DNA from: a virus
Taxonomy: Duplodnaviria > Heunggongvirae > Uroviricota > Caudoviricetes
Reading direction: 5' to 3' (one strand)
Virus record (IMG/VR): IMGVR_UViG_3300028048_000076
Length of the DNA: 64,000 nucleotides
The translations under genes were made by a program, and so were the position numbers. The notes under the pieces were generated by a model. That model was not told where the DNA came from. It saw only the letters and a list, made by a program, of their open reading frames with translations, and ran no database searches. Numbering within the stretch: the first letter of the stretch is position 1; each line of letters begins with the position of its first letter. Below are positions 1,010 through 50,907 of the stretch, one piece after another.

Positions 1010-3262
1010 GTGAAAGAAAATGATGTACTCTCTTTAAGAGAACTATTTAATAAATTAAACCAACAGCAGACAGTATATGGCGAGAAAATGGAACGCTTGT
1101 ATGATATATTTGGAGGAATTAAACAGTTTCCATCCAATGTTTCGAATTCAAATGATTCACCAGGTCTATGGCCTGATACAGGTGTAAATGTTTATGCAAT
1201 TCTCCCTGAATATACTTTGGCTGTTAAATTCTGTACTACAGGTGTATTATTTAATATTGGTCAAGGTAGGAGTAAATATCAGTTTATGCTCGTTCAATCA
1301 GATGAATTGAACCCTCGTAAGAACGGCAAGCTTTATTATCGTTATGCAAAAGTCGGTGATAATGATTGGAGTAAATGGATTCGTTTCTTGTATCAATATG
1401 AATTGACAGGTGGTAAAGATAAAGACGGAAATCCAATCCTTGACGATTTTGGCTTACCAACTACTGATACAGAAGATATGAGTCCTGAAAACAATTCTCA
1501 TAATTTTGATGATTTAGGAAAAAAATGGTTATCTATTTTTGTAGATGCAGCAAAAGAAGCAAATAGGTTAGCAGATGCACGTAAGATTGAATTGACAGGT
1601 CTTGTACAAGGTTCAGCTATGTTTGATGGTTCAAAAGATATTCAAATTAATACAAGTGCAGGACAGTTCTATGTTCCTTTGAATGTAAATTTGACAGCAG
1701 GTTATCGTAGTAATGATGAATATCATTTATTGGCAACTTTGCCTGCAAGTTCAGGAACTACATATGATTATGTAATTGTAACAGGTCATATTGGCGGTTA
1801 TGAAAATACACAAGGTAAGTGTTGGTTTACAGCTTGCATATCTAACCGTTCAGGCGAAATGGCTAATGGTTTTTATGTTGGTTCTTTAGGAACAAATAAC
1901 CTTGTTGTTTACAAAACTTCTTTAAATGAATTAAAAGTTTATTTGTTATTGAGAGGTTGGAATGACGATTGTAAAATTTCTGTATATGGTAGTAATCAGG
2001 TAGAAATTAAACATGAAGTCCAATCTTTGACTGCTACAAACAAAGTGTGGAATTTGCAGGATTGTCCTCATGTTTTTGAAAATAATGTGTATGGTACATT
2101 CCGTGGCAATGCCGATACTGCTACAATGGCAGATAATGTAAAACAAATTCCGATGAATAATCGTGCAAGTTATTCAGGTGATTTGTATGCTGTTGGTGCA
2201 AAGAACGAATCAGGTAATCAAGTTCTTCTAACAGAAAAAAGCATAAAATTTAAATCAAATGGGTATATTGAAGCAAAAGGTTTCAGTGGTGCATTGAGTG
2301 GTACAGCAGATAAGAGTAAGGTTGCAGAAAATGCAAATAATGTAAAAGTTAAAATGAATGCAACTACAAAATGTTTCTTGCTTGGTGCATCTGCGGCAGT
2401 AGGTTCTAATTATAATGGTGTTGATACAATGCCATTCTACGATACAAATGTCTATTTAACAACAACATCAGGTGAATTATATAGTAGGTTATTTAAGAAC
2501 TACAAGATGGAATCTGATAATGCAGACATTAAAGATTTGCACGTTGTTAATAAATTCCAAATTGGTAAAAAAGCAGATGGTGTAACGGATGCTGAAATGT
2601 ATTGCTTATCTGACAAGCAATATTTCCAAACAATTCGTATGGGTAATGGTACAAACGTAAATGCGTCAGTATCAGCGAAGTTGTATATGGAAAAAGCTCA
2701 GTTGATTTTTGGTACATCAGATAAACCAAGAGTAATTTTCAACTCGCCAACAAATGCCGCAGGCGGTTATGTGGGCGTTTATCCTGATAGTAAATATCCA
2801 AGTCAGGGCTGTTTGGAAATTCAAGGCTGTTTAAGTCCTACTCGTGTATATCATGCAGTATATAATGATATAGCAGAGTTGTTCCCTTGTAAAATTGAAG
2901 CTGAAGTTGGTGATGTATTGATGCTTGACCCAAATTCAGATGAAGAATTATATATTAAAAGTTCGGAAGGTGCTAAGTGCGTAGCAGGTGTAATTTCCGA
3001 TACATATGGATGTTTGCTCGGTGGTGACAAAAATATGTCGCCTGAAGAACTAAATAAAAATTATAAACCTATCGGTCTTGCAGGTCGTGTAAAAGTTAAT
3101 GTCGTTGGCAAGATTGAAAAAGGCGATAAATTAGTGGCAACTGATAATGGTTGCGCAAGAGCATATAATTCTGAAAAAGATAGTTTAGATGACGTTATTG
3201 GTTATGCTATAATTGCAGATGATAAAACAGAGAAACGTCAATTAAAAATGAAAATTAAATAA
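1010..3262 (+). CDS. large virion-associated protein, possible tail fibre / receptor-binding protein
   Basis: 750-aa ORF with GTG start. Composition is rich in Gly, Asn and Thr, typical of phage fibre proteins. No catalytic motif recognised. A terminator follows. Confidence 0.45.
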   Translation: MKENDVLSLRELFNKLNQQQTVYGEKMERLYDIFGGIKQFPSNVSNSNDSPGLWPDTGVNVYAILPEYTLAVKFCTTGVLFNIGQGRSKYQFMLVQSDELNPRKNGKLYYRYAKVGDNDWSKWIRFLYQYELTGGKDKDGNPILDDFGLPTTDTEDMSPENNSHNFDDLGKKWLSIFVDAAKEANRLADARKIELTGLVQGSAMFDGSKDIQINTSAGQFYVPLNVNLTAGYRSNDEYHLLATLPASSGTTYDYVIVTGHIGGYENTQGKCWFTACISNRSGEMANGFYVGSLGTNNLVVYKTSLNELKVYLLLRGWNDDCKISVYGSNQVEIKHEVQSLTATNKVWNLQDCPHVFENNVYGTFRGNADTATMADNVKQIPMNNRASYSGDLYAVGAKNESGNQVLLTEKSIKFKSNGYIEAKGFSGALSGTADKSKVAENANNVKVKMNATTKCFLLGASAAVGSNYNGVDTMPFYDTNVYLTTTSGELYSRLFKNYKMESDNADIKDLHVVNKFQIGKKADGVTDAEMYCLSDKQYFQTIRMGNGTNVNASVSAKLYMEKAQLIFGTSDKPRVIFNSPTNAAGGYVGVYPDSKYPSQGCLEIQGCLSPTRVYHAVYNDIAELFPCKIEAEVGDVLMLDPNSDEELYIKSSEGAKCVAGVISDTYGCLLGGDKNMSPEELNKNYKPIGLAGRVKVNVVGKIEKGDKLVATDNGCARAYNSEKDSLDDVIGYAIIADDKTEKRQLKMKIK

Positions 3263-3296: not shown

Positions 3297-3412
3297 CTGA
3301 AAATAATCTGAATAACAATTTCTTACTCCCCCAATAGTAGAATTAGTATGTTGGACAACGGTATTATTTTTGGTTGCGGTTTTTCTATTCAATTTATAGA
3401 GGTGATGATAAT

Positions 3413-4099
3413 ATGTCAGATATTTCAAAAATTACTTCGGTTGCTAAACGATATGAATCCTCAGGAGATTGTTCAACAGTTTCTGATGCTTGTGGCGGTG
3501 GAGACTTGGGTGGCATTTCTTATGGTTCTTATCAATTGGCTAGTAATGCAGGTTCAGTGGATGGTTTTCTTGATTTTGCAAGAAATTATCAGAATGATGC
3601 TTTGGCTAACTATGCTAGAGTTTTGTCACAGTATACAGTAAATTCAGATGAATTTATTGATACTTGGAGACAAATTGGTTATGCTGACCCTGAAGGTTTT
3701 AGTGAATTGCAAGATGCTTATGCAATGGAAAGGTATTACAATCCTGCCTGCAATTATCTTGCAAATAATTATTATGACGTAGAATCAAAAAGTTTGGCAA
3801 TTAAGGCTTGTGTATTTAGCCGAGCTATTCAATATGGTTCAGGTAATATTGTTGAATTATTCACAGAAGCATGTAAAAAGATGGGCTATCCTAATTTATC
3901 ATATGTGAATGATTCCGACTATGATTATGATTTAATCTGTGCTATCTATGATTTCTTAATTGAGGAATGTGATGAAGCAGAATATAATGGTAGTTATTAT
4001 CATAGTCCAAAAGATTGGTGTAATGGTAGCGAGGGAGTAATCTACGGATTGCGAAATCGTTTTGTCCATGAAAAACAAGATTTGTTAGAAATGCTTTAA
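3413..4099 (+). CDS. hypothetical protein
   Basis: ATG at 3413 is preferred over the upstream ORF-track start because of the GAGGTG ribosome-binding site at the correct spacing. 228 aa. No confident family assignment. Confidence 0.5.
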   Translation: MSDISKITSVAKRYESSGDCSTVSDACGGGDLGGISYGSYQLASNAGSVDGFLDFARNYQNDALANYARVLSQYTVNSDEFIDTWRQIGYADPEGFSELQDAYAMERYYNPACNYLANNYYDVESKSLAIKACVFSRAIQYGSGNIVELFTEACKKMGYPNLSYVNDSDYDYDLICAIYDFLIEECDEAEYNGSYYHSPKDWCNGSEGVIYGLRNRFVHEKQDLLEML

Positions 4100-4324: not shown

Positions 4325-5437
4325 ATGCTGAAAGCATACAAATTTAGATTATATCCTAATGAAGAACAGAAACAATTTTTTGACCAAAATATTGGAAATT
4401 GTAGATTTGTTTATAATCATTGTTTAGGTCTTAGAAAAGACCTTTGGAAAAATGAACAAAAAACTCTTTCTATGAAAGAATTGTCAAAACACATCACTGA
4501 TTTGAAGAAATATCAAGAATACGAATGGCTGAAAAAGAGCGATTCCATCGCTTTACAACAGTCACTCCGTGACCTCGATTCATCTTTTCAACGCTATTTC
4601 AAGAAAAAAGCTAAATATCCAAGATTTCATAATAAGCATAAGAAAAATTCTTACAGAACACTAAACCAGAATAATAAAATACGTTTTGAAAATGGCAAGC
4701 TACGCTTGCCTAAACTCAAAACTCTTGTAAAAGTTAGACAAAGCAAATTTTTCAATGGAATAATCAAAAATGCTACGGTGTCAAGGACACCATCAAATAA
4801 GTATTTTGTTTCACTTCTTGTGGAAGAACAAGATGTTTTTAGAACATCACAAACCAACGAAGTTGGCATTGATTTGGGTATTAAAGATTTTGCCATTACA
4901 TCAAATGGTATCAAATATCATTTGAACACTAAGCATATTAAAAAACTTGAAAAGAAGTTAAAAAGACTTCAAAAACAATTTTCAAGAACAATGCCTAAAT
5001 CTCAAAACCACGAAAAACGAAGAATTAAATTAGCTATTCAATATGAAAAAATTACCAATTTTAAAAATGATTTCTTTCATAAACTTTCAAGAAAGATAGT
5101 AGACGAAAACCAAGTCATAGCTATTGAAAGTTTAAAAATCAAAAATATGGTAAAAAATCATAAATTGGCTAAATCTATTCAAGATTGTTCGTGGAACAAA
5201 TTCATAACTATGCTTGAATACAAAGCAAAATGGCAATGTAATTGCCAAGTAGTGAGGGTGGACACCTTCTTTGCTAGTTCTCAAATTTGCAGTTCTTGTG
5301 GATATAAGAGTCCAAAAGTAAAAGACTTGTCAATCAGAGAATGGGAATGTCCGAAATGTCATGCTACGCATGACCGTGACATAAATGCAAGCATAAATAT
5401 CTTAAAAGAAGGTAAAAGGCTACTTTCAGTAGCCTAA
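4325..5437 (+). CDS. tnpB: TnpB (OrfB_IS605) RNA-guided endonuclease
   Basis: 370 aa. RuvC-like motifs are present: IDLGI, AIESL and [12 protein letters not shown]-terminal CxxC...CxxC zinc ribbon is present. Confidence 0.9.
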
Positions 5438-6291: not shown

Positions 6292-7083
6292 GTGATGAAA
6301 ATGAAAAACATTGAAAATGGTTTTCAGAATATTGTAAACGAATTAAATAATTGTAAAAACAATCAGGAAAAATTTAAATTAATGGAAGAAACGGAAAAAA
6401 AAGCATATAAATTGATTGATTCTATATCACATAATCGTATATATTCATCACGAGAAGAATTGACTAATTTTTTCAAAAAATATCCTAAATATAATGCGGA
6501 AATTTATGTGTGGCAAGAAAGTTCTGATAGATATGTTGTTTCTGCATTTGGTGTGAAATTATTTACTATGGAAATATTGAGTCGAAAAGTAAAAAGCTGT
6601 GACCTTGATGGCTATAAAACTAAAATTAGAGAAACAAAAACTGAATTACAAAAAGATATTGATATTAATAAAAAATATATTGACAAATATAAAAAGATGA
6701 TAAAAATGAATTATTTTCAAAGTGTTTGTCATGATTTGACTGCATTTGAATTTTTATCTCCGTCTACTTATAGAAAAGCAAAAGACGTTTTGTGTGATAG
6801 ACTTCAAGGATTGGTAGAATTAAATTTCTCAAAAGAAATGAAATTGCAAACCATTGAAACAAGTTCATGTCGTTTACTTGAAGCAATAATGGTTATTCAA
6901 AAATATTTTAAAGAATGTTTCGAAGAGGAAGATTTTCGATATATTGAGGATGGACATTCGGAGTTTTTTACTGTGATTGAATCAATAAATATGCTAAATA
7001 AACAAAAAATTGAAAATAGAGAATTACCTGAATTTCATTTTGATGAAAGTTGGGTATCAAAGCCAACGATAAAGATTGACTAA
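6292..7083 (+). CDS. hypothetical protein
   Basis: 263-aa ORF with a ribosome-binding site. No recognisable domain. Confidence 0.5.
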   Translation: MMKMKNIENGFQNIVNELNNCKNNQEKFKLMEETEKKAYKLIDSISHNRIYSSREELTNFFKKYPKYNAEIYVWQESSDRYVVSAFGVKLFTMEILSRKVKSCDLDGYKTKIRETKTELQKDIDINKKYIDKYKKMIKMNYFQSVCHDLTAFEFLSPSTYRKAKDVLCDRLQGLVELNFSKEMKLQTIETSSCRLLEAIMVIQKYFKECFEEEDFRYIEDGHSEFFTVIESINMLNKQKIENRELPEFHFDESWVSKPTIKID

Positions 7084-7118
7084 AGAAAGAGTGGTAGAAA
7101 AATCTACCACTCTTTCTT
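7084..7118. terminator. bidirectional terminator between convergent genes
   Basis: Inverted repeat aagaaagagtggtag/ctaccactctttctt with A/T runs on both sides. Confidence 0.65.
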
Positions 7119-7389
7119 AATGTTCTACAAAAATAATTTTACCTTGTGCTACACCAAGATTGGATTTTTCCTGCATGATGTAAGTCTCAGGTGCTTCATT
7201 GGTACGGCGAGGACGATAAGTGTACCAAAGATTATCATCCTTGTCCCATTCTGCTTCAATGAATGTCATCCCTTGAGGAAGGTCAATGGTTTCAGTGCCA
7301 CCAACGTTACGTGTTATGGTGTTATCTGTACAACCGATAACCGACAATGAAATTGCAACTAAAAGAATTCCCAATACAAATCGTTTCAT
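7117..7389 (-). CDS. small lipoprotein
   Basis: 90 aa. Signal peptide followed by a lipobox-like LSVIGC. Confidence 0.6.
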   Translation of the reverse strand: MKRFVLGILLVAISLSVIGCTDNTITRNVGGTETIDLPQGMTFIEAEWDKDDNLWYTYRPRRTNEAPETYIMQEKSNLGVAQGKIIFVEH

Positions 7390-7457: not shown

Positions 7458-7486
7458 TTGACAAAATCTGAGCAAAATCGTATAAT
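7458..7486 (+). promoter_or_regulatory. sigma70 consensus promoter of the dnaE N-fragment
   Basis: TTGACA (7458..7463), 17-nt spacer, TATAAT (7481..7486). An AGGAGA ribosome-binding site lies before ATG 7520. Confidence 0.7.
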
Positions 7487-7519: not shown

Positions 7520-9643
7520 ATGTCAGACGGATTTGTAAATCTTCATGTTCATACAGATAGAAGTTTGCTTGATGGAATGATTAAAACCGATGATTTGGTT
7601 TCAACTACATTGGAATATGGACAAATTGCATCAGTAATTACAGACCACGGAAATATGTATAGTACAGTTGACCATTTTAAAGAAGCAAAGAAAAAAGGGC
7701 AACATGCAATTGCAGGCGTTGAACTTTATATGGTTAATAATATGACCGTTAAAGGCGGTTCTGAAGGTGAGTCTGAAAATGGTAGCCAACGGAATCACTT
7801 TTTGCTACTTGCGAAAAATAAGGCAGGTTATCAAAAGATGTGCCGTATTGTGTCTAAAGGCTATACAGATGGTTATTATTATCGTCCTCGTGTAGATAAT
7901 AATGTATTTGAAGAGTTTCTTGATAAAAATGAAAACGATTTAATTGCTTCCTCTGCTTGTTTCCTTGCAGGAACAAAAGTTATTCTCGCAGATGGTACAT
8001 TGAAAAACATTGAAGAATGTGTGAAGGGTGATAAGGTAATCACACATTTGGGTACAGTAGAAACTGTAAAAGCCCCTACTAAACGTTATTTTAAAGGGCA
8101 GATTTTTAAATTAAAGATTAAAGACAAGCCTGATATTCGTTGTACATCAGACCACAAATTCTTTATTCAGAGATTTAAGAATTCTGTACGTTCTGAAAAT
8201 GGCAAAGTAGAAATGAAATGTGTATGGGCAGAAGCAAAAACCTTAAAACGTAAGGATTATTTGCTTGAACCTGTAGCAAATAAGGAAGATTCTGACATTG
8301 AGTGGGAAGGTGTTTATTATAAGAGACATACATTCCTTCATTATGAACGTAAGTATTACAAAGAAATTCCTGTACATTGCCTTGCTGTAGAGAATACGCA
8401 TTCTTTCCTTGTAGAGGGTGGTATTTCTGCACACAATTGTCTTGCAGGTAAAATCCCACAACATATTCTTCGTGGTGAAATTGCCGAAGCAGAAAAGGTT
8501 GCAAAATATTATCAGCAACTTTTTGGTGGTAATTTTTGGCTTGAAATTCAGCCAATGGAGGGATATGAACAGTACATTGTAAATAAAGAACTTATCGCAA
8601 TGTCTAAACGTTTGAGCATTCCTCTTATTGCTACTACAGATGCTCATTATCTGAAAAAAGAAGATAAAAAGACACATGATATTTTGTTATGTTTGCAGAG
8701 TGGTAGCTTAATTACAGACCCAAATCGTTGGAGCTTTCCAGGTAATTCTTATTATATTATGAAGAAAAATGAAATTCTTGATTTCTTCACTAAAGGTTTT
8801 GATTATAAATTAATCAAAAAAGAAAATAAGAAGAAAAAAGCAGTGGAACAATTTAAATATGAATACGTTCATAATTATGATGGAGCAAAATTTGCTGACC
8901 CTGAACGTGTTATTGATGGATTCGTTTCTGTTGAAGACCAAGGACATTTTTCATATGCAGATTTAGACCAAAATGCTATTGCAGAAGCTGTTGCAGAAAC
9001 AGAACGAGTAGCAGAAATGTGTAATTTTGAGATTGAACTTGGTAAACATTATTTGCCTAAAATCAATATTCCTGTTGACAATCCTGAATATCAGAAGTGG
9101 ATTGATAACAAAAAGAAAAGGAATTTGCCGTTAGGGAAGGATAATGAGAATTATCTTAAATTCTTGTGTCAAACAGGTCTTCAGAAACTTGGGCTGAAAC
9201 CTACAAAAGAAATCCGTGAACGATTGGACTATGAATTAAATATCATTAATAATATGGGATTTCCTGATTACTTCCTAATTTATTATGATATTGCAAATTT
9301 CTGTCATGAAAAAAATATTCCATTCGGACCAGGTCGCGGTTGTTTTGTAAAAGATTCTATGGTTACTACTGAGAATTCTACAACACCTATTCAAAATATT
9401 CAGTTGGGCGATAATGTATATTGTCATGACGAAAATTTACATCCTGTTCTTGCCAAACATGAATATGATATAGATGAAGATATTACCGATATTCAATGCG
9501 GTGATAAAAAAATTGATGGTGTTACACTTGACCATAAGATTTTTGCGATTAAGCAAAAAGATTATGAAAATGGTAGTCGGCAACCCCAATGGTATTCTGC
9601 TAAAGAATTAACAGTGGGAGATTATATAGTTGAATTAAATTAA
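7520..9643 (+). CDS. dnaE: DNA polymerase III alpha (DnaE) N-terminal fragment with mini-intein, ending in the split-intein N-half
   Basis: The PHP-domain N-terminus MSDGFVNLHVHTDRSLLDG matches the DnaE HxH motif. The extein ends at GPGRG and is followed by C-FVKDSMVTT (intein block A). The ORF stops after 100 intein residues. Confidence 0.9.
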   Translation: MSDGFVNLHVHTDRSLLDGMIKTDDLVSTTLEYGQIASVITDHGNMYSTVDHFKEAKKKGQHAIAGVELYMVNNMTVKGGSEGESENGSQRNHFLLLAKNKAGYQKMCRIVSKGYTDGYYYRPRVDNNVFEEFLDKNENDLIASSACFLAGTKVILADGTLKNIEECVKGDKVITHLGTVETVKAPTKRYFKGQIFKLKIKDKPDIRCTSDHKFFIQRFKNSVRSENGKVEMKCVWAEAKTLKRKDYLLEPVANKEDSDIEWEGVYYKRHTFLHYERKYYKEIPVHCLAVENTHSFLVEGGISAHNCLAGKIPQHILRGEIAEAEKVAKYYQQLFGGNFWLEIQPMEGYEQYIVNKELIAMSKRLSIPLIATTDAHYLKKEDKKTHDILLCLQSGSLITDPNRWSFPGNSYYIMKKNEILDFFTKGFDYKLIKKENKKKKAVEQFKYEYVHNYDGAKFADPERVIDGFVSVEDQGHFSYADLDQNAIAEAVAETERVAEMCNFEIELGKHYLPKINIPVDNPEYQKWIDNKKKRNLPLGKDNENYLKFLCQTGLQKLGLKPTKEIRERLDYELNIINNMGFPDYFLIYYDIANFCHEKNIPFGPGRGCFVKDSMVTTENSTTPIQNIQLGDNVYCHDENLHPVLAKHEYDIDEDITDIQCGDKKIDGVTLDHKIFAIKQKDYENGSRQPQWYSAKELTVGDYIVELN
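7958..8437 (+). other. mini-intein (160 aa, no endonuclease domain) in the DnaE PHP region
   Basis: Begins Cys-FLAGTKVILADGT (block A). Ends HSFLVEGGISAHN and is followed by a +1 Cys. It is in frame within the dnaE N-fragment. Confidence 0.8.
9341..9640 (+). other. split-intein N-fragment (IntN, 100 aa) fused to the DnaE N-extein
   Basis: The extein motif GPGRG is followed by CFVKDSMVTTENSTTPIQNIQLGDNVY... and a stop codon. Its size is comparable to known DnaE IntN halves. Confidence 0.8.
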
Positions 9644-9656
9644 AGGAGGATTTTTA

Positions 9657-18156: not shown

Positions 18157-18645
18157 GGTAGAGTAATCGCTTAATGCCCCTGCAAAGTGTGGAAATTGCT
18201 GGAAAGTCCTAAAGTTTGCTATGCTACAACGTATTTTTAAACAGAATAGCGTGAATGCTTAAAAAATAGCAAAATGAGTCATTATGCTCTTAACGGAAAC
18301 CACATAATGATGATGAAATGGATAATCAGCCGCTAAAACCTCGTCAATGTAAAAATTGAAGGGGGATGTTCAACGAGTAAGTAGGGAACACACCCTCGCT
18401 CACACTAGCTTAAATGTATTCAAACACTTGGCGTTAAAGTGGCATTTGAGTGAAAGATATGCTCTAATCTTTATGGAAACATAAAGAAAAGGAGGAATGT
18501 GTTAAATCCTCCTTGGTTATAAATTGTTTTGTTTTGTTAAATTGTTATATTGTTTTGTTTTAAAATATTTTTTAGATTTTTTGTTGACAACTCCTTAACT
18601 TCATTATATAATATATTATATAACAAAACAAACAAAATATAACTG
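18157..18645 (+). other. group I intron 2 in the dnaE C-fragment (~490 nt, no ORF)
   Basis: Required to join ...NVELVG to LVKLDILKLSNMEAL..., which aligns without a gap to E. coli DVEYAGLVKFDFLGLRTL. The 5' end (taatgcccctgca...tcctaaag...aaacag) resembles intron 1. Boundaries are approximate. Confidence 0.55.
18584..18612 (+). promoter_or_regulatory. perfect sigma70 consensus promoter inside intron 2
   Basis: TTGACA (18584..18589), 17-nt spacer, TATAAT (18607..18612). It is flanked by the inverted repeats ttgttttgtttt (18551..) and aacaaaacaaacaa (18622..). Confidence 0.5.
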
Positions 18646-20469
18646 CTGGTTAAGTTAGATATTCTTAAACTCTCTAATATGGAAGCACTTTATGAGCAAA
18701 TTGATTTGCTTGAAAGTGAATACGGAATTAAAATGACATTGCAAGACATTCCTCTTGATGATAAAAACGCATGGGATTTAATTTGCAAATGTGATACAAT
18801 GGGTGTCTTTCAGATGGAAGGTGACATTGGTAAAAATATCATTAGACAGATTAAACCACGCAATATAGAAGAATTGTCAGCAGTAAACGCATTTGTGCGA
18901 CCAGGTACTTCAGGTCTTGAAAATTATTGTGCAGCTAAAGAAGACCATTCTTTAATTCCGAAGTATGACCCAAAAATTGATAAATGGTTAGCACCTACTT
19001 ATGGAGCAATCGTTTATCAGGAAGAAATTCTTGGTATGATTTCGGAAATGATGGGCGTATCTTTTGGTCGTGCAGATATTTATCGTAGAGCATTGGAAAA
19101 ACCAAACAAGAAGGGTAACAAGGAATTATTTGAAGACTTCTTGAACAATGGCGTTGCTAATGCTGTAAAAAATGGCATTAATGAAGATGGAGCAAAGCGA
19201 ATTCAAAAGGCGATAATTGATAATGCAGGCTACCTCTTTAATAAGAGTCATTCGATTGCCTACTCAATTATCAGTTATTGGTGTGCGTGGGTAAAGGCAA
19301 ATTATCCACTAATTTTCTATCTTTCTTTGATTAATACTGAGCCTGTTTCTAAACTTCAGAACTGTATTACAGAAGCAAGAAAACATGGTATTACAATTTT
19401 ACCGCCTGATATTTCTAAGTCTAAATTCAAAACAACAATCGAAGATAAAGATGCAATGACTATTCGTATGGGCTTACATTGTATTAAAGGTGTTGGCGAT
19501 AAAGCTGTTGATGAATTGATGGCGGCACAGCCATTTACTGACATTGAAGATTATTTGAATCGCGCAGGTAAAGGTGCAGGTAAGGGCGTTGTGATGGCTG
19601 CTATCAAAATTGGTGCTTTGGAAAATCTTCCTTTAAAAATCAACAAAGATTTCATTAAAGAGGAAGATGAAAAACGGTTCAAAGACATTAAAAAAGCCAT
19701 AGAGATGGAGGATTATGTACCATCTGCTGATTTTAGAGAAATGGTTGATGAAGTTACAAATGTAGAATTTGTATATATGAATCGTTTACAACAGGAAATT
19801 TGGTATAACACATATTTGGAAAACAAAACATTAAAATCTGTTAAAAATTATGCGTTGCCACAAGATATTATCCGTGGTCAATATTTAGATAATATTGATA
19901 TGGATGAAGTAACAGTGGAAAAAGACGATACCATTGTTATTCCTGCTGATATGCTTCAGTTGGTTGGCTATACAGAAGAAGATGTTGAGAAATTTAAATC
20001 TCGTAAAAAGCCTAAAGGATTTTTCTTGAAAGAAAATGAATTGAAAAAGCTCACCCCTGTTGAACGTGGATTCAAGGTCGCTTATGATAATTTGGTTCGT
20101 GTTAAGTACAGTGAATTAAATTGTTATCTTGAAGATATGAAAAACTTTGAGATTTCATTTATTCAACATCCTTTAGAAAACATTGCAAATATTATTTGTA
20201 AGATTGCTGAATGTTCTGATGGTAAGAGGGTTCGCAGTGCAGGTATTATTACCAATATTGTCAAAAGACAAACAAAAACAGGCAAACCTTTCTATAATAT
20301 TTTCTTACAAACGCCATCTGAGAACCAAAGGTTGACAGTATGGAACAATATTTTTGTGGAAAATCAAAGCATTCTTACTGTAAATCACATTATTAAAATC
20401 ACAGGAAAAGTGGGATTCGGTGGTATTACAGTAGATACTATTGAAGACGCAAAAGCTAACTACAAATAA
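18646..20469 (+). CDS. dnaE: DnaE C-fragment exon 3 (fingers/thumb, GVFQ and RPG motifs, FNKSHS motif, OB fold)
   Basis: Contains GVFQMEG, NAFVRPGTSG and AGYLFNKSHSIAYS (the intact equivalent of the cyanobacterial split site). The ORF-track 18679..20469 is this exon starting from an internal Met. Confidence 0.8.
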   Translation: MVKLDILKLSNMEALYEQIDLLESEYGIKMTLQDIPLDDKNAWDLICKCDTMGVFQMEGDIGKNIIRQIKPRNIEELSAVNAFVRPGTSGLENYCAAKEDHSLIPKYDPKIDKWLAPTYGAIVYQEEILGMISEMMGVSFGRADIYRRALEKPNKKGNKELFEDFLNNGVANAVKNGINEDGAKRIQKAIIDNAGYLFNKSHSIAYSIISYWCAWVKANYPLIFYLSLINTEPVSKLQNCITEARKHGITILPPDISKSKFKTTIEDKDAMTIRMGLHCIKGVGDKAVDELMAAQPFTDIEDYLNRAGKGAGKGVVMAAIKIGALENLPLKINKDFIKEEDEKRFKDIKKAIEMEDYVPSADFREMVDEVTNVEFVYMNRLQQEIWYNTYLENKTLKSVKNYALPQDIIRGQYLDNIDMDEVTVEKDDTIVIPADMLQLVGYTEEDVEKFKSRKKPKGFFLKENELKKLTPVERGFKVAYDNLVRVKYSELNCYLEDMKNFEISFIQHPLENIANIICKIAECSDGKRVRSAGIITNIVKRQTKTGKPFYNIFLQTPSENQRLTVWNNIFVENQSILTVNHIIKITGKVGFGGITVDTIEDAKANYK

Positions 20470-20471
20470 AA

Positions 20472-20505
20472 AAAAGGGAAGTCTAAAAAGACTTCCCTTT
20501 TTTTA
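20472..20505 (+). terminator. rho-independent terminator after dnaE
   Basis: Inverted repeat aagggaagtc/gacttccctt followed by a T-run. Confidence 0.7.
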
Positions 20506-29600: not shown

Positions 29601-30734
29601 ATGAAAATTGTTTGCTTTGCAGATACACATGCAGGTGTAAAAAACTATGGACGAATTGATAAAGAAACAGGTATGAATGAGCGAGAAGTACAAACGCTCA
29701 AACTTCTTGATGAAACTGTAAACTATGCAATTAACAATAAAGCCGATTGTGTAGTTTTTGCAGGGGATATGTACCACAAAAATATGCCCTCCCCTACTCT
29801 CGTAAATGGTGTGAATGAAGTAATGGTAAAATTGTCTACAAATGGGATTCGTACATTTGTTCTTGACGGAAATCATGATGTGTCAAAAATGGAAACGTTC
29901 GATTCAGGTTTGAAACAGTTTGATACATTAAACATTCCATATTTTACACATAGTCGTTTTTATCAAGAAGAACTTTTTAATTGTAATGGTAATACATATA
30001 GATTTGTATTTTTACCTACATATCATACTAAAGATGAAATTGAAGAATATATGAATAAAGTGGATGATAAATATCCTACATTCATTATTTTTCATGGTTC
30101 TATTAAAGACGCTATGTTAAACGATTGGAATTCTATGGATGGAAAAACTTCAATTGATAAGGAAGTTTTTAATAAGCCAAACGTTTTGGCTGTAATTATG
30201 GGTCATTTCCATAAACATCAGATTCTGAATGAAAAACCACTTGTTTTTTACACAGGGTCTACAAATCGAATTGACTTTACTGAAGAAAAACAGAAAAAAG
30301 GTTTTGTGGAATTGATTGTTGATGATGCCACTTTAGAAACCAAATATAAATTCGTTGAATTGTCAAACGCACAAAAGTTCAAGACCATTCAGGTAGATTG
30401 TACTGATATGTCTACTGCTGAAGAAATTGAAAAAGTGTTGATTAAAGAAATTAACAATACTGATTTGAAAGATGCTATTCTGAGAATTCGATTAAATATG
30501 ACAGAAAATGTTATTGTTGATGAAAAGAAAATTCTTGAAACAGCATATAATAACGGTATCTATTATATGTTAAAAATTCAAAAAATCTTGCCTAATGTTG
30601 AAAGCATTGTTGAAGATGGTATTAGTAATATGCTTTCCATTCAAGATTCGTTGGAAAAATATTTTGACGGAGCAAAACGCAAAACCGAAAGAGTAGCATT
30701 AGGTATGGAGATTGTTAAAGAGGTGGACGAATAA
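29601..30734 (+). CDS. sbcD: SbcD/Mre11-family nuclease
   Basis: Calcineurin-like phosphoesterase motifs are present: FADTHAG, AGDMYH, LDGNHD and GHFHKHQ. gp47-like. Confidence 0.8.
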   Translation: MKIVCFADTHAGVKNYGRIDKETGMNEREVQTLKLLDETVNYAINNKADCVVFAGDMYHKNMPSPTLVNGVNEVMVKLSTNGIRTFVLDGNHDVSKMETFDSGLKQFDTLNIPYFTHSRFYQEELFNCNGNTYRFVFLPTYHTKDEIEEYMNKVDDKYPTFIIFHGSIKDAMLNDWNSMDGKTSIDKEVFNKPNVLAVIMGHFHKHQILNEKPLVFYTGSTNRIDFTEEKQKKGFVELIVDDATLETKYKFVELSNAQKFKTIQVDCTDMSTAEEIEKVLIKEINNTDLKDAILRIRLNMTENVIVDEKKILETAYNNGIYYMLKIQKILPNVESIVEDGISNMLSIQDSLEKYFDGAKRKTERVALGMEIVKEVDE

Positions 30735-31135
30735 TGTATGTGAAACCTGTACAATGCTCTTTGTACACGTATTACGGCACATTGACTCATGCAGGAGAAA
30801 TTGCCAACATTCTTAGAAATAAGAAAATGACGAAGGATGATTTTTATGCTTATGTTAGCAAAGCAGGATTAACATATCGCAATATTGCGGATGAAGACCG
30901 TTCAAAGGAAATCATCATTGGTAAAATGTTGGATTATTATCCTGATTTTGTGGCAATGAAAATCAAACATACTGCTGATGGAATTAAAATGTCACATTTA
31001 AACAAAGCTCCTGTTAAAATGAAATTAACACAAGAAGAAGAATTGAAGGTCAATCAGGCGTTGCTTGGATTAGGGTTTTTCCCTGACTGTGGATATTATA
31101 TGTTCCATAGCTATTCTTCAAAAATTATCAAGTAA
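30734..31135 (+). CDS. hypothetical protein
   Basis: 133 aa. Start overlaps the sbcD stop codon (taATG). Confidence 0.45.
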   Translation: MYVKPVQCSLYTYYGTLTHAGEIANILRNKKMTKDDFYAYVSKAGLTYRNIADEDRSKEIIIGKMLDYYPDFVAMKIKHTADGIKMSHLNKAPVKMKLTQEEELKVNQALLGLGFFPDCGYYMFHSYSSKIIK

Positions 31136-31149
31136 GGACTAATCATTAA

Positions 31150-31452
31150 GCATCAAAAAATATACGCAAGTATTCTTAAACATACTTAAAAAGTGGACAT
31201 TTATCTTTTTGGTATGGCTTGATGATTGGTTTCAAGCTTTAGTGACTACGGCTGACGAAAGTCAGACCGTAGGATGAACTGTGTTAGATGGATAAGGTAA
31301 AAACTCACCTTCGGATGTACTTTCAGTCTGTCGCTCTGAGAACTCCAATCAAGAAACATTGCTAATGTCCTGCAATGATAACAGAGAAAAGTATGACCTC
31401 CCATTTGACTTTGGCAAGAAGGAAAATTCCGTAGAAATACGAGGTAACAGAA
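31150..31452 (+). ncRNA. putative IscB omega-RNA
   Basis: GC-richer, ORF-free region ending at the iscB ribosome-binding site. Contains multiple stems, for example ctacggctgac-gaaa-gtcagaccgtag. Its position 5' of iscB matches known OMEGA architecture. Confidence 0.5.
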
Positions 31453-32685
31453 ATGTTAAAAGAATATTCATTTGTTTTGGATGAAAAAGGTCAGAAATTA
31501 GACCCAACAATTATTCAAAACGCTTGGCGATTAATTCGCCAAAAGAAAGCAAAATTAATTTCCAAATTTCCAATGGTAATACAATTAAATAAGGTTGTTG
31601 AAAATCCTAATAAAGATGAAATTTATTTAGGAATTGATGATGGTGCTGTTCATGTTGGTATTGCTCTTGTTCAAAAATGTTTAACGAAAAACAAAGTCCT
31701 TTTTAAAGGTGTAATTGAACAACGAAAAGATGTTCATAAACTCATGGAACAAAGGAGAAATTATCGTAGATACCATCGGTATCATAAATGGTATAGACCT
31801 CAGAGATTTAATAATCGTTCTTCATCTAAAAGAAAAGGACGGTTAGCACCGTCAATTCTACAGAAGAAACAAGCTATTGTTAGAGTTGTTGACAGGTTGT
31901 TGCAATGGATAAAAATCAATCAAATCCATTTAGAGGATGTAAAAATTGATATTAGAGCATTAACAGATGGATATAAGCCATACAAATGGCAATATCAAAA
32001 ATCTAATCGTTTAGATGAAAATCTTAGAGTCGCAACAATTCTTCGTGACGGATGTTGTATGGAATGTGGTAAATCAAATACCAATTTTGAAGTACATCAC
32101 ATCACACCAAGAAAAAATGGTGGCAGTGATACATTGAGTAATTTGATTACTCTTTGTCCAAAATGTCATCAAAAAACTTTTGGTAGAGAAGAACAGTTTT
32201 CTGATAAATATTATTCTTTGATTGATGGTAAGAATTTACGAGAATTAAAATATGCTCAACATGTCATGCAAGGTAAAACATGGTTACATAATGAATTATC
32301 TAAACGTAGTGATTTAATTTTAACTACAGGTTGTGATACTGCAAACAAGAGAATTGATTGGGATATTGAAAAATCTCATTCTAACGATGCTGTTTGCATA
32401 ACTGATTTAAAACCTGAAAATGTTGATATTTTGGAATATACAATTAAACCAATGCGTAGACAAAGCAAAGCAAAAACGGATAATGTTTTAGGTATCAAAC
32501 ATAGGGACTTGGTTTGTTATACATATCGTAATGGTGAAAAACATACAGGATATGTAACAGCTTTGTATTCAGAATTAAATGCGATTAATTTTCAAAGTCC
32601 AACAAAACATTGTAAAAAAATTAATGCGAAAAAATGTAAGTTGCTTTGGAGATTTAATAAGGTATATTGGTTAAAATGTGTATGA
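31453..32685 (+). CDS. iscB: IscB (OMEGA RNA-guided nuclease; PLMP-RuvC-I-bridge helix-RuvC-II-HNH-RuvC-III)
   Basis: PLMP-like N-terminus [16 protein letters not shown]...PMVIQL. RuvC-I is [15 protein letters not shown]. The Arg-rich bridge helix is [22 protein letters not shown]...LAPS. HNH is [32 protein letters not shown]. RuvC-III is HSNDAVCI. Confidence 0.85.
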
Positions 32686-32734
32686 AATGTACTTTTGTAC
32701 ACATTTATCTATGTTTTAGTAAGGAGGAAATGTC

Positions 32735-34798
32735 TTGTTACCTAAGTATCTTAAAGTAAAAGGGTTTCGTAGTTATATAGATACAGAAATTAATTTTTCT
32801 GATTTTGGACAGATGTTCAGTGTGATGGGGCAGAATGGTGCAGGTAAGAGTTCCATTATTGAAATGATTACTACTGCGTTATATTGGTGCAATTCTTGTA
32901 CTGATTCCAAAGGTGCAGGGATGGATGAATGTATCAATATGGATTGTGACCATTTTGAAATTGAATTCTGTTTCGTTATGAATGGGATTGAATATATCAT
33001 TATAACCAAAAAGTATCGTGGTGAAAGTCGAGAACTTGAATTTTATATTGATGGTGTCAATCAATCCGAAAAAGTAACAGAAACACAGGAAAAGATAAAT
33101 TCTGTTTTAAAAATGGATTATAATACATTCCTTGATACAGTTTGTATTGGACAGGGTAAGTCTAGCCGTTTTATGTCTAAAAAACCTGCTGAACGTAAGC
33201 AGACGTTAATGCAGATTCTTGATGTTCAGAAATATGAACAGTATGAAAAAATGGCAAAAGAACAGAAGAAATCTGTCAAAGAACAGATGGAAGCCATTGA
33301 GTATAAAATTAATCTGCTTGATTCGGAAGAAATTAACGAAGAATTGATTAATGCAGACGTTCAACGAAATGAAAATCAAATTGAAACTTATAAAAAAGAA
33401 CTTTCTGAATTAAATACAGCTCTTGAAAAAGAATTGGAAGAAAAGGCAAAATACAAGTCTATTATTGATTTGAACAATAACACAAAGACTTTAAAAACAA
33501 CGGCAAATAGAAATTACGAAAGTTCACTAGAACGCATTAAACAGGCAGAATCGAAAAAGAAAAAAATCAGTGAGCAACCCATGCCCAATGAAGATGCTTA
33601 CAAAAAAGAAGCAATTGAATTAAAAAAACAATATGAAGAAAATGATTCAAAACTTAATGAATTGAAAGAAGAAATTCATAAGGTAAAAACACAAGCAACG
33701 ATTCATCAGAATTATATCAATGATTACCGTAAACAGTTTGAGGATTTTAAATCTTATAATAAGGCTGTATGTGAATTGTGTGGTAATGAGATTACTGAGG
33801 AACATAAAGAATCTCATTTGAAAAAGATTATGGCACAAGCAAAAGAACACAGTGTCAAGAAAAAATCATTTTTAGCAACAGCAGAGACTTTGACAGAAAA
33901 AGCGACTGAATTAAGTGCTAAAAATCGTGAGATTCGTGAAAGAATTGATTTTTGCAAAGAACAAATTCATTTAGCAAGGTTGCAAAAAAGTCAATATGAT
34001 GATATAATAAGAATGGTAGAATCGCTCAATGAAATGTTTGAAGAAGCAAAAAAACAGAAAGAGCAAGCTGACAAAATGGAAATTTTAAATGTAGAAGAAA
34101 AAGATTTCTGTGATGGTCAGATTAAAATGCAGATTTCTGAGAAAGAATCTCAAATTATGGATTTGACAACGGAAAATGTTCGTTTGCAAGAAAAGGTTAG
34201 TAATTACGCAAAGAACAAAATTCAGTTGGAAGAATTGCAAAAACAGTATGTTGAACTAAAACAGAAGCATACAGATTTGACAGCGGTTGCTACAGCATTT
34301 GGTAAATCAGGCATCCCTGCATCAATTATTGCCCATGATATTCCTGAAATGGAATCAGAAACGAATAAGATTCTGAAAGTTATTTCTAATGATTCTATGT
34401 CAATTCAGTTTATTACATCAAAGAAAACAGCAAACGGAAAACGTTCTGTAGATACTTTGGAAATTGTAGTAAATGATATGAATGGTACAAGACCTTATGA
34501 AACCTATTCAGGTGGTGAAAAGTTTAGAATTGATTTTGCTTGCCATATTGGTATGGCAAAATTCCTTACTAAACGTGCAGGAGCAAGTATTGACTTCCTT
34601 ATTATTGATGAAGGTTTGGGAAGTCAGGACGATTTTGCAAAACAGAAGTTTATTGAGAGCATTAATTCTTTGAAAGGTCTGTTTAAGCAAATTATGGTTA
34701 TTACACATATTCAAGATTTGCAGAATGCATTTGAAAATCGTGTGCTTGTTGAAAAAGACCAATTGAGTGGTTCAAAGGTTGAATTGATGGAGGTATAA
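32735..34798 (+). CDS. sbcC: SbcC/Rad50-family ATPase
   Basis: TTG start with AGGAGG ribosome-binding site. Walker A is GQNGAGKSS. Long coiled-coil region. Signature motif YSGGEKF, Walker B FLIIDEG and H-loop VITHIQ are present. Confidence 0.85.
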   Translation: MLPKYLKVKGFRSYIDTEINFSDFGQMFSVMGQNGAGKSSIIEMITTALYWCNSCTDSKGAGMDECINMDCDHFEIEFCFVMNGIEYIIITKKYRGESRELEFYIDGVNQSEKVTETQEKINSVLKMDYNTFLDTVCIGQGKSSRFMSKKPAERKQTLMQILDVQKYEQYEKMAKEQKKSVKEQMEAIEYKINLLDSEEINEELINADVQRNENQIETYKKELSELNTALEKELEEKAKYKSIIDLNNNTKTLKTTANRNYESSLERIKQAESKKKKISEQPMPNEDAYKKEAIELKKQYEENDSKLNELKEEIHKVKTQATIHQNYINDYRKQFEDFKSYNKAVCELCGNEITEEHKESHLKKIMAQAKEHSVKKKSFLATAETLTEKATELSAKNREIRERIDFCKEQIHLARLQKSQYDDIIRMVESLNEMFEEAKKQKEQADKMEILNVEEKDFCDGQIKMQISEKESQIMDLTTENVRLQEKVSNYAKNKIQLEELQKQYVELKQKHTDLTAVATAFGKSGIPASIIAHDIPEMESETNKILKVISNDSMSIQFITSKKTANGKRSVDTLEIVVNDMNGTRPYETYSGGEKFRIDFACHIGMAKFLTKRAGASIDFLIIDEGLGSQDDFAKQKFIESINSLKGLFKQIMVITHIQDLQNAFENRVLVEKDQLSGSKVELMEV

Positions 34799-50717: not shown

Positions 50718-50907
50718 TGTAATTACTTCCTTTCATGTAATCCCTCAACTTTATATTTATTATAACTTATTTAACTATTTTTGTCAACACTTTTTTAAAA
50801 TTTTACAAAAAAGTTACTTGTGTGCTATAATATATTAAACTCTCGCATTGAAAATATTTAGTATGTAGAACTTATTAAACGATTACAACCAAAGGAAGTG
50901 ATTTTAC

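Follow-up and report, generated by a model that had tools for sequence, protein, structure and literature searches.

The 64,000-nucleotide stretch analyzed here (hereafter the window; IMG/VR virus record IMGVR_UViG_3300028048_000076, Caudoviricetes) carries, between positions 7520 and 20469, a gene for the replicative DNA polymerase, dnaE, which is distributed over two polypeptides and interrupted by four elements, namely one cis intein, one naturally split intein, and two group I introns. We consider it probable, at roughly 85 %, that this gene supplies a jumbo phage related to Bacillus phage G with its working polymerase and that all four elements remove themselves; mechanistically, every one of them is of a known class. 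This reading is based on the anatomy of the sequence, on homology and fold, on conservation and purifying selection, and on the colinearity with alleles that lack the elements. An initial annotation of the same DNA had arrived at this overall picture, and the features it described were all recovered at, or no more than 3 nucleotides (nt) from, the positions it gave; the phage setting was likewise borne out. What it had omitted are a free-standing homing endonuclease, the separate transcription signals of the two halves, and the endonuclease gene that intron 2 has lost.

Anatomy of the interrupted gene

The pieces of the gene are listed below by position, with a slash marking a splice junction here and throughout. 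Related contigs that recur in the comparisons are L002/L006 (IMG/VR contig 3300021431_000100; protein identity 69-85 % by segment), L007, and L001 (a 416-kb contig, 42 % identity); 2hpi denotes the Taq Pol III alpha structure, IntN and IntC the two fragments of the split intein, and aa amino acids.

7520..7957, plus strand: dnaE-N extein part 1, PHP domain, aa 1-146, ending in ...DLIASSA (PHP, E 1.7e-37)
7958..8437, plus strand: cis mini-intein of 160 aa (aa 147-306), without endonuclease domain (Pfam Intein_splicing, TIGR01445, TIGR01443)
8438..9340, plus strand: dnaE-N extein part 2, aa 307-607, rest of PHP and start of the palm, ending in NIPFGPGRG (DNA_pol3_alpha positions 2-84; colinear with 2hpi)
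9341..9643, plus strand: IntN, 100 aa, with Cys1 and block B TLDH, charge -10, closed by TAA at 9641 (Pfam Hint_2, Hint)
17004..17010, plus strand: Shine-Dalgarno (SD) sequence AAGGGGG, 7-nt spacer to GTG (from sequence)
17018..17131, plus strand: IntC, 38 aa, block F KVYDLTVEGAHSYNV, block G FIVHN, charge +2 (Intein_splicing, TIGR01443)
17132..17166, plus strand: C-extein exon 1, Ser+1, SGAGSLVNYAL, and the first two bases of a Gly codon (colinear with 2hpi and with the intron-less L002, L001, and L007)
17167..17636, plus strand: intron 1, 470 nt, group I ribozyme of group B IStron type without open reading frame (ORF) (Rfam 43.6 bits; homology to phage c-st)
17637..18159, plus strand: C-extein exon 2, the C of the Gly codon, then VTSVNPL...PDIDSDF...NVELVGG (Pfam DNA_pol3_alpha positions 101-251; 2hpi)
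18160..18648, plus strand: intron 2, 489 nt, canonical group I intron (Rfam 51.5 bits)
18649..20469, plus strand: C-extein exon 3, VKLDIL..., fingers with FNKSHS, HhH, C-terminal region, and stop (Pfam DNA_pol3_finger, E 6.7e-37; HHH_6)

Conceptual removal of all four elements yields a product of 1239 aa, which scores 750 bits on TIGR00594 (cut-off 434) and aligns with 2hpi at E 6.5e-143 without gaps at the three C-side junctions, in agreement with the co-linearity with DnaE that had been proposed for the spliced chain. The gap-free stretches read fgpgrg-sgagslvnyalg-vtsvnpl and velvgg-vkldil, where 2hpi has vgpgrg-saagslvayavg in the first of them. The product carries, in this order, the PHP domain, the palm with the GRGS motif and the catalytic aspartates, the fingers, and the HhH region that characterize Pol III alpha; equivalog-level NCBIfam cut-offs are not reached by it, as is expected for a divergent phage enzyme. 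On the N side, the 707-aa ORF 7520..9643 matches Pfam PHP (E 1.7e-37), DNA_pol3_alpha positions 2-84, Intein_splicing at aa 154-306, and, at its C-terminus, Hint/Hint_2, and its extein, freed of the mini-intein, aligns with Taq Pol III alpha residues 7-257. The N half thus contributes PHP and GPGRG, the first portion of the nucleotide-binding motif, and the C half contributes the Ser of the GRGS motif, the PDIDSDF aspartates, the fingers, and HhH. Since the active site is shared out between them in this manner, neither half alone would be capable of polymerization.

Frameshifts or internal stops were found in none of the dnaE pieces. Ratios of nonsynonymous to synonymous substitution (dN/dS) against the related phage L002/L006, whose synonymous sites are saturated (dS 0.9-2.4, and about 1 for IntN and IntC), are lowest for the mini-intein (0.037) and lie at 0.085-0.19 in the exteins, with 0.17 for IntN and 0.22 for IntC. 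A Megablast search of the locus against GenBank phages gave no match, and only protein-level and 'distant' searches were informative.

The mini-intein in the PHP domain shows Cys1 (CFLAGT...), block B TSDH, and a terminal ...SAHN that is followed by Cys at position +1, and the matches to Pfam Intein_splicing, TIGR01445, and TIGR01443 confirm the N-fragment with PHP domain and 160-aa mini-intein at 7958..8437 as first described. With the L006 copy it shares 89 % aa identity (dN/dS 0.037), compared to around 69-85 % for the exteins (dN/dS 0.085-0.19). In other relatives, the PHP-site intein is larger (P0052, P0063, and P0077) or missing (P0051).

The split intein at the GRGS motif

The second intein interrupts the palm within the nucleotide-binding motif, and its two halves are encoded by separate genes. 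IntN begins with Cys1 directly after the N-extein (GPGRG/CFVKD...) and is closed by a stop codon, and IntC is provided with a start codon and a ribosome-binding site of its own, as is typical for naturally split inteins; 7374 nt separate the IntN stop from the IntC start. The short C-side ORF that had been pointed out at 17018, with its AAGGGGG element, is indeed a GTG-initiated frame of 51 codons (17018..17173) with a 7-nt spacer, encoding the 38-aa IntC and then SGAGSLVNYALG. Its intein nature, for which matches to blocks F and G in 17018..17131 had been named as the critical check, is supported by Pfam Intein_splicing positions 120-155 (E 9e-8 and 32.5 bits, which lies below the gathering cut-off of 35.8) and by TIGR01443 (E 7e-5).

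All residues needed for class-1 splicing are in place. Of the 16 split IntN rows in the family alignment, 15 have Cys right behind the RG motif, as do all three contiguous rows, block B TxxH is present as GVTLDHKIF (with T.DHK in nearly all family rows), and the C-terminal His-Asn is followed by Ser+1 (FIVHN/S). Fused IntN and IntC align with the Pho RadA mini-intein straight through the break, which, according to this alignment and to an insert in phage G, falls between the N-terminal and the C-terminal splicing subdomain, where endonucleases are canonically inserted. A profile built from 51 family rows detects solved HINT domains over positions 5-142, namely BIL (2.6e-10), gp41-1 (9e-7), and Npu DnaE (about 2e-3). 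An alignment-based AlphaFold2 model of the fused halves shows a HINT fold with a predicted local distance difference test score (pLDDT) of 93.7 and a predicted template modeling score (pTM) of 0.87; prediction from the single sequence was uninformative (pLDDT 42.9). In a Foldseek search of the PDB, the best matches to the model were all HINT domains (BIL2, BIL, gp41-1, DnaB mini-inteins, and Npu DnaE), with gp41-1 at TM 0.85-0.88 and a root-mean-square deviation of 2.1-2.7. The net charges of the halves, -10 for IntN and +2 for IntC, are close to the family means (-8.7 and +2.4).

These profile matches to both halves, the HINT model, the charges, the dN/dS values, and the same layout in relatives support the split intein claimed at GPGRG/S, and we regard the element as a class-1 naturally split intein with predicted splicing activity. 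Equally upheld is the statement that its site is not the cyanobacterial one, as the break lies at the palm site GPGRG/S and FNKSHS in exon 3 is uninterrupted. The separation of the halves had been called unusually large, which is accurate in comparison to the fractured genes of Dassa et al. (2009) but not to the relatives of this locus (4.9, 5.5, >9, and >10 kb) or to cyanobacteria, where the halves lie at separate loci.

Two group I introns in the C half

Intron 1 was assigned to RF00028 by a local Rfam search (17337..17578, 43.6 bits, E 2.4e-9), and a 'distant' BLAST search found 68 % identity over 431 nt, covering the whole intron, to a sequence of Clostridium phage c-st. Since this c-st counterpart lies directly upstream of CST133 and CST132 (IS607-type OrfA and OrfB), it is an IStron, probably CbISt3 by its ORF content; phage c-st has two IStrons, CbISt3 and CbISt4 (Tourasse et al. 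2014, PMC4227781). Staphylococcus and Enterococcus phage sequences of unannotated nature are homologous to intron 1 as well. Group B IStrons insert after AGGG, TGGG, or GAGG and end in CGG (Tourasse et al. 2014, PMC4227781); their 5' exon ends in G, and the U of the U-G pair is the first intron base (PMC4227781). The window sequence ...CTTTGGG/T...GAATTCGG/C follows these rules with the target TGGG/U, the end CGG, omega-G at G17636, and a wobble pair U17167-G17177 one position 3' of the splice site, and this is the only in-frame solution with a terminal G. The predicted RNA joint is GCTTTGGG/CGTTACATC (the downstream exon side being also given as CGTTACATCTG), whereby the joined codon GG/C encodes Gly.

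The group B boundary rules, together with the intron-less L002, which sets the exon sequence to ...YALG/(I/V)T..., therefore place intron 1 at 17167..17636, one position upstream of the 17168..17637 of the initial annotation; the group I type stands by homology, with an Rfam score below threshold, and the protein across the junction is unchanged. Two other solutions were rejected: a canonical site with the 5' exon ending in U17167 has no in-frame 3' site ending in G, and splicing via U17162/U17163 and G17635/G17636 would lose one residue relative to all homologues and leaves no P1. The minimum free energy fold of intron 1 contains the P1 helix (z-score -3.35), and a stop codon lies one codon into the intron (5 nt past the splice site). 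No transposase-sized ORF (OrfA or OrfB) is present within the 470 nt, and intron 1 is hence classed as an ORF-less relative of IStrons rather than as an IStron proper. It is absent from L002, L001, and L007.

Intron 2 exceeds the RF00028 gathering score of 50 with 51.5 bits over 18107..18486 and displays the landmarks of a canonical group I intron. P1 is formed by 18153-59 and 18176-82 with the wobble pair U18159-G18176, and a P10 of 6 bp pairs CUUAAU (18170-75, just 5' of the 3' strand of P1) with GUUAAG (18649-54), with omega-G at G18648. The copy in L002 ends in ...TTTTTAAG/GTTAAG (AAG/GTTAAG), in agreement with the site in the window, and intron 2-less alleles read VGAVKLDVL (L007) and IGGMKYDIL (L001). 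P1, P10, the terminal G, the L002 end, and the intron-less alleles together set the junction at ELVGG/VKLDIL and the intron at 18160..18648, with a predicted RNA joint of GGTTGGGGGT/GTTAAGTTAG (downstream exon side also given as GTTAAGTTAGAT). The group I nature and the length proposed earlier were thus corroborated, but the position shifts from 18157..18645 and the junction from ELVG/LVKLDIL. The latter was discarded, as it would have a 5' exon ending in G without a matching rule, ignores the 6-bp P10, and turns the L002 junction into G/KVK.

The fold z-score of intron 2 is -3.25 and a stop codon lies 5 codons into it. The two intron copies of the window and L002 are 88 % identical, compared to 72-77 % for the exons at the nucleotide level, which is compatible with either strong constraint on the RNA or lateral movement in the recent past. 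The L002 copy contains a minus-strand ORF of 537 aa for a Vsr-like endonuclease (IEYDG..H motif, match to a PHROG homing endonuclease). The window retains relics of such a gene at about 18516..18640, namely a remnant of the C-terminus (minus-strand ORF 18537..18635) and the SD sequence with its leader, from which we conclude that its intron 2 has lost the homing-endonuclease gene. A 35-nt match between intron 2 and window positions 2041..2075 lies inside an uninterrupted 750-aa ORF and was taken as chance.

Relatives of the locus

The layout of the locus is kept in relatives at 42-80 % aa identity, including the start codon and SD sequence of the C half. L002/L006 shares the mini-intein and the stop codon behind IntN, and its IntC gene, headed by AGGAGG and GTG, lies 5.5 kb further downstream. 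In L007, which is without introns 1 and 2, the halves are 4.85 kb apart and AGGAGG precedes GTG at the equivalent position; a different intron of about 360 nt occupies 6808..7165 at DLIFER/FLNP. Metagenomic fragments that end at the same point, DLIFER/, are P0002, P0005, and P0019, and others (P0001, P0003, and P0007) end at RGHLP/, as in phage G. In L001, IntC is fused to an uninterrupted C-extein with two endonuclease-like ORFs just upstream, and no N half is found within 9 kb. Across three close relatives, both inteins are constant and introns occur at three different sites: intron sites turn over quickly, the inteins are fixed.

In metagenomic protein searches, IntC-DnaE-C fragments made up 48 clusters, with contigs reaching 502 kb, and DnaE-N proteins with a homologous C-terminal IntN made up about 20 (at 50 % identity); contiguous mini-inteins occurred at the GRG/S site as well (P0068, P0069, and P0075). 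As the split is widespread and has contiguous cousins at the same site, it appears to be old and derived from a cis intein.

The closest cultured phage is Bacillus phage G (NC_023719), whose gp339 shares 40 % aa identity with exon 3. Its gp329 contains a contiguous intein at the same site (VGPGRG/C...VHN/SAAGS), which is not annotated as such and matches the two window halves with 32 % and 53 % identity (E 4e-12 and 7e-16). This intein has an insert of about 100 aa exactly at the break of the window intein (query positions 96-97). The phage G dnaE (4959..15722 in L015) consists of gp329, an endonuclease-bearing gap (gp330), gp331, 5 kb with seven genes, and gp339, and gp331 and gp339 join at VEALGL/VKFDILGL, the position of intron 2 in the window. 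An Rfam search of the phage G dnaE region revealed no intron.

Fragmentation goes further in L013 (10001..14955; JGI 3300013121, a 185-kb contig), where DnaE comes in at least four pieces. The order is a 163-aa protein composed of IntC, 34 aa of extein, and IntN, a 311-aa endonuclease-like ORF, a 395-aa protein of IntC, extein, and IntN, a 139-aa ORF, and a 666-aa piece with fingers and HhH; the N half was not found within 10 kb upstream. To judge from its sequence, L013 may represent a natural multi-intein assembly, and mini-fragments like those of L013 also occur in P0020, P0023, P0033, P0041, and P0043.

The interval between the halves and its transcription signals

The two halves are separated and flanked by the following features.

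7458..7486, plus strand: perfect sigma-70 promoter sequence upstream of dnaE-N (12/12 match)
9657..15595, both strands: nine unrelated cargo genes (Pfam, PHROG)
11188..11225: bidirectional terminator-like hairpin ending the dnaE-N/flotillin unit (consensus scan)
12452..12478 and 15623..15640: terminator-like sites (consensus scan)
15658..15686, plus strand: perfect sigma-70 promoter sequence upstream of the endonuclease and dnaE-C unit (consensus)
15776..16939, plus strand: free-standing homing endonuclease with DUF7487 repeats and a Vsr-like DUF559 domain (PHROG, Pfam)
18584..18612, plus strand: perfect sigma-70 promoter sequence inside intron 2 (consensus)
20469..20504: terminator-like hairpin after dnaE-C (consensus scan)

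The cargo includes an SPFH/flotillin-like, a polysaccharide-deacetylase-like, and a Ham1 nucleoside-triphosphate pyrophosphatase gene as well as two paralogous gene pairs (11490..11996 with 13635..14102, both on the minus strand, and 12041..12451 with 14219..14632, both on the plus strand). A cargo block shared with L002/L006 is inverted there, and several genes are unique to each phage. Next to IntC, 78 nt upstream, the endonuclease gene 15776..16939 ends, which matches phrog_12131 (E 7.6e-50), phrog_3339 (E 4.7e-31), DUF7487 (E 1.5e-46), and DUF559 (E 9.7e-5). This gene is absent from L002, and other endonuclease ORFs take the equivalent place in L001. Homology to the endonuclease in the L002 intron was considered and dismissed, with only the short IEYDG..H motif in common.

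Exact TTGACA-N16-18-TATAAT sequences occur ten times in the window, compared to 0.175 expected from shuffles, at 7458, 11976, 14133, 15658, 18584, 39133, 51601, and 57016 on the plus strand and at 50787 and 49198 on the minus strand. Ten perfect promoters and strong SD sequences suggest a host with canonical sigma-70 and SD usage that is Firmicutes-like rather than Bacteroides. Given the promoters, the terminator-like hairpins, and, between the halves, genes on the minus strand, each half most likely belongs to a transcription unit of its own; the endonuclease and dnaE-C are probably transcribed together. The promoter sequence at 18584 lies 37 nt before the 3' splice site of intron 2 and is retained in L002 in an 11/12 version; on its minus strand, 18584..18612 corresponds to the leader and SD sequence of the lost endonuclease gene. 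A transcript starting at 18584 could not splice, and its first in-frame ATG (18679) is without SD sequence.

Proposed maturation and alternative explanations

In the mechanism we propose, a first unit would run from the promoter at 7458 to the terminator at about 11200 and yield DnaE-N (PHP and the early palm up to GPGRG) fused to IntN, from which the 160-aa mini-intein would excise itself in cis. A second unit, from the promoter at 15658 to the terminator at about 20500, would comprise the endonuclease gene followed by dnaE-C. From the dnaE-C RNA, the two group I ribozymes would excise themselves, intron 1 being cut after G17166 in the IStron manner and intron 2 in the canonical one, and translation from GTG 17018 would then produce IntC fused to a 792-aa C-extein. 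The two intein fragments, IntN acidic and IntC basic, would associate into a single HINT domain, which by class-1 trans-splicing (Cys1, TxxH, His-Asn, and Ser+1) would join Gly and Ser within GRGS to the 1239-aa DnaE. As for its origin, an ancestral contiguous intein, as in phage G, may have been broken at the endonuclease-insertion point, and genes may have accumulated between the halves later.

It is conceivable that the two halves instead assemble non-covalently, with the intein halves acting as a dimerization module that does not splice. Split enzymes that function without splicing have been reported, such as the endonuclease-split NrdA of phage Aeh1 (PMC3045599), and an intein-less two-gene minimal Pol III alpha was proposed for some jumbo phages (PMC7824862). 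Yet Cys1, the Thr and His of block B, His-Asn, and Ser+1 are kept in the window and in the family rows, a retained intein of about 140 aa would occupy the active site given the break inside GRGS, and the contiguous relatives at the same site must splice to yield a polymerase, all of which makes such an assembly highly improbable. No better a chance is given to the idea that one or both intervening RNAs are retained and exon 2 and/or exon 3 made separately, for example, from the promoter in intron 2. That this perfect sigma-70 sequence lies 37 nt before exon 3 and that intron 1 scores below the Rfam gathering score speak for it, but the 5' ends of exons 2 and 3 have no start preceded by an SD sequence (the first ATG of exon 3, 18679, included), joining the exons reconstitutes conserved motifs precisely as they stand in intron-less alleles, and both RNAs score as group I with P1 and omega-G, intron 2 also with the 6-bp P10.

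Four interruptions and nine foreign genes in a single gene might, given that the genome is seen in part, also suggest a decaying pseudogene in a phage that uses another polymerase. This we consider more improbable still: the pieces are free of frameshifts and internal stops, dN/dS values of 0.04-0.22 in every piece, despite saturated dS, indicate purifying selection throughout and thus argue against a pseudogene, and the layout, with the start and SD sequence of the C half, is conserved in relatives at 42-80 % aa identity. Least probable of all is that the 7.4-kb separation is an artefact that joined unrelated pieces, as metagenome assembly could produce, for the N-fragment protein is found on three contigs, one of them 206 kb long and with the same downstream genes, and two independent related contigs have the same order of N half, cargo, and C half with different cargo.

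Several points nonetheless weigh against the trans-spliced, working polymerase that we favor. We infer all four splicing events, the transcription units, and the origin of the split from sequence, and promoters and terminators were called solely by their match to a consensus; the perfect promoter within intron 2 (18584) is not accounted for by the proposed mechanism. The alignment behind the structure model joins IntN and IntC rows of different genomes. Intron 1 scores, with 43.6 bits, below the RF00028 gathering score of 50, and the rule of a 5' exon ending in G was experimentally demonstrated, by reverse-transcription PCR, for BcISt1 only (PMC4227781), not for intron 1. Finally, the genome measures at least 206 kb, of which the window covers 64 kb, and a second, intact dnaE may be located elsewhere.

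Other features of the window

Two solo TnpB genes (OrfB_IS605 plus a Cas12f-like TNB domain) lie at 4325..5437 and 58206..59387, both on the plus strand, and a RAGATH-18 RNA (Rfam, 60 bits) follows the second of them after 56 nt (59443..59506); we take this RNA to be possibly the guide (omega) RNA region of the element. In the plus-strand stretch 29601..34798, the gene for an SbcD-like phosphoesterase (29601..30734) is followed after about 2 kb by that for an SbcC-like ATPase (32735..34798). The space between them includes a free-standing RRXRR/HNH endonuclease (31453..32685) and a 133-aa ORF (30734..31135), another selfish insertion, here in a repair operon. The protein encoded at 3374..4099 (plus strand) has a C-terminal domain like that of VgrG3 of the type VI secretion system (E 2.3e-30). 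This VgrG3 domain is a peptidoglycan hydrolase, and the product is likely a virion-associated or lysis enzyme.

Implications

Three aspects of the locus are new: the GRG/S split-intein family with its cis cousin in phage G, the arrangement of halves that are uncoupled but still linked, and an ORF-less intron of IStron type. With Ser at position +1, an IntN of 100 aa, an IntC of 38 aa, numerous variants, and contiguous relatives, the GRG/S family offers raw material for protein-ligation tools and orthogonal sets. The locus further displays a stage between a compact fractured gene and dispersed halves, in which cargo, an inversion, and terminators already intervene, and it illustrates the different tempos of inteins, which are fixed and under selection, and introns, which vary. 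Ribozymes of the type that splices after G gain a member that has no ORF and sits in an essential phage gene. For annotation, the lesson is that gene callers present such polymerases as unrelated fragments and that a 51-codon IntC ORF is easily overlooked.

A more far-reaching interpretation, which we offer as speculation and deem rather unlikely, is that the GRG/S split was the founding break of an old, widespread habit, by which phage G-like jumbo phages build DnaE from two to at least four polypeptides with mutually orthogonal split inteins; L013, with its mini-fragment of IntC, 34 aa, and IntN and no fewer than three breaks, would be a case in point. The split would then be kept since the halves sit in differently controlled units, and maturation would serve as a post-translational AND-gate during infection.

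Comparison with known systems

The cyanobacterial dnaE-n/dnaE-c genes (Synechocystis and Nostoc) share with the window the Pol III alpha host protein, a class-1 split intein, and independently initiated genes, and also the dimensions and charges of the halves (IntN of about 100 aa and acidic, IntC of about 36 aa and basic). The cyanobacterial intein, however, interrupts the fingers at FAEY/CFNKS(H) with Cys at +1, whereas that of the window interrupts the palm at GPGRG/SGAGS with Ser at +1, and cyanobacterial halves reside at separate loci (PMC2677866), in contrast to 7.4 kb apart on one strand of a phage. Sequence likeness to the Npu DnaE intein is at the family level only (E about 2e-3). For bacterial PolIII-alpha, Novikova et al. 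list intein sites at a hot spot in the fingers (a-d and g) in their text and further points in PHP in a figure legend, and of all these only site a is split; the GRG/S palm site is not mentioned in the text. A limited literature search returned no publication describing the GRG/S site or its split-intein family, which is not proof of absence. Phage G resembles the window in having dnaE in several pieces with an endonuclease between them and the same GRG/S insertion point, but its GRG/S intein resides in one polypeptide and its intron sites are partly different (RGKLP/, and VEALGL/ with 5 kb of genes).

Among introns, the group B IStrons BcISt1, CbISt3, and CbISt4 (PMC4227781) are like intron 1 in the TGGG target, the initial U, the CGG end, and the 5' exon ending in G; unlike them, intron 1 is without OrfA and OrfB, measures 470 nt, and resides in an essential phage gene. 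Introns of the I-Bth0305I family (PMC3239194) are comparable to intron 2 of L002 with respect to a Vsr-like homing endonuclease in a phage group I intron, but intron 2 of the window has no ORF, and the L002 ORF is on the strand opposite to the host gene. A paper on Jug and crAss-like gut phages (PMC12880540) reports jumbo phages in which group I introns, endonucleases, and Intein_splicing proteins interrupt the polymerase, terL, and nrdD genes. Their polymerase genes are split by endonuclease sequences, with no split intein or trans-splicing described for the polymerase in that paper. Hosts of Jug phages are predicted to be Bacteroides, whereas the promoters, SD sequences, and phage G-like DnaE of the window point to a Firmicutes-type host. 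Assignment to the Jug phages, considered in view of relatives on contigs of 398-404 kb, was set aside, as promoter and SD usage and the affinity to phage G point elsewhere.

The closest parallel is provided by the 'fractured genes' of Dassa et al. (2009; PMC2677866). Three DnaE loci belong to them, their split inteins located at sites other than the cyanobacterial one, and GRG/S may be among these sites; another member is the gene with the natural split intein gp41-1, which ranks among the best structural matches to the split intein described here. A free-standing, sometimes Vsr-like endonuclease was found between the halves, for which co-transcription with the C half was suggested, and subsequent loss and uncoupling were proposed to lead to dispersed halves, as in cyanobacteria (PMC2677866). 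The window agrees with these genes in its phage-like replication gene, the split intein, and an endonuclease (often Vsr-like in the fractured genes) just upstream of the C half; it differs in that the stretch separating the halves also holds nine more genes, on both strands, and three terminator-like sites, and the locus is no longer compact. It thereby corresponds to 'uncoupling', step IV of the scheme, which was proposed there but not observed with the endonuclease still present. With the endonuclease beside IntC and the halves uncoupled, the window is an intermediate between the compact fractured gene and the dispersed split of cyanobacteria.

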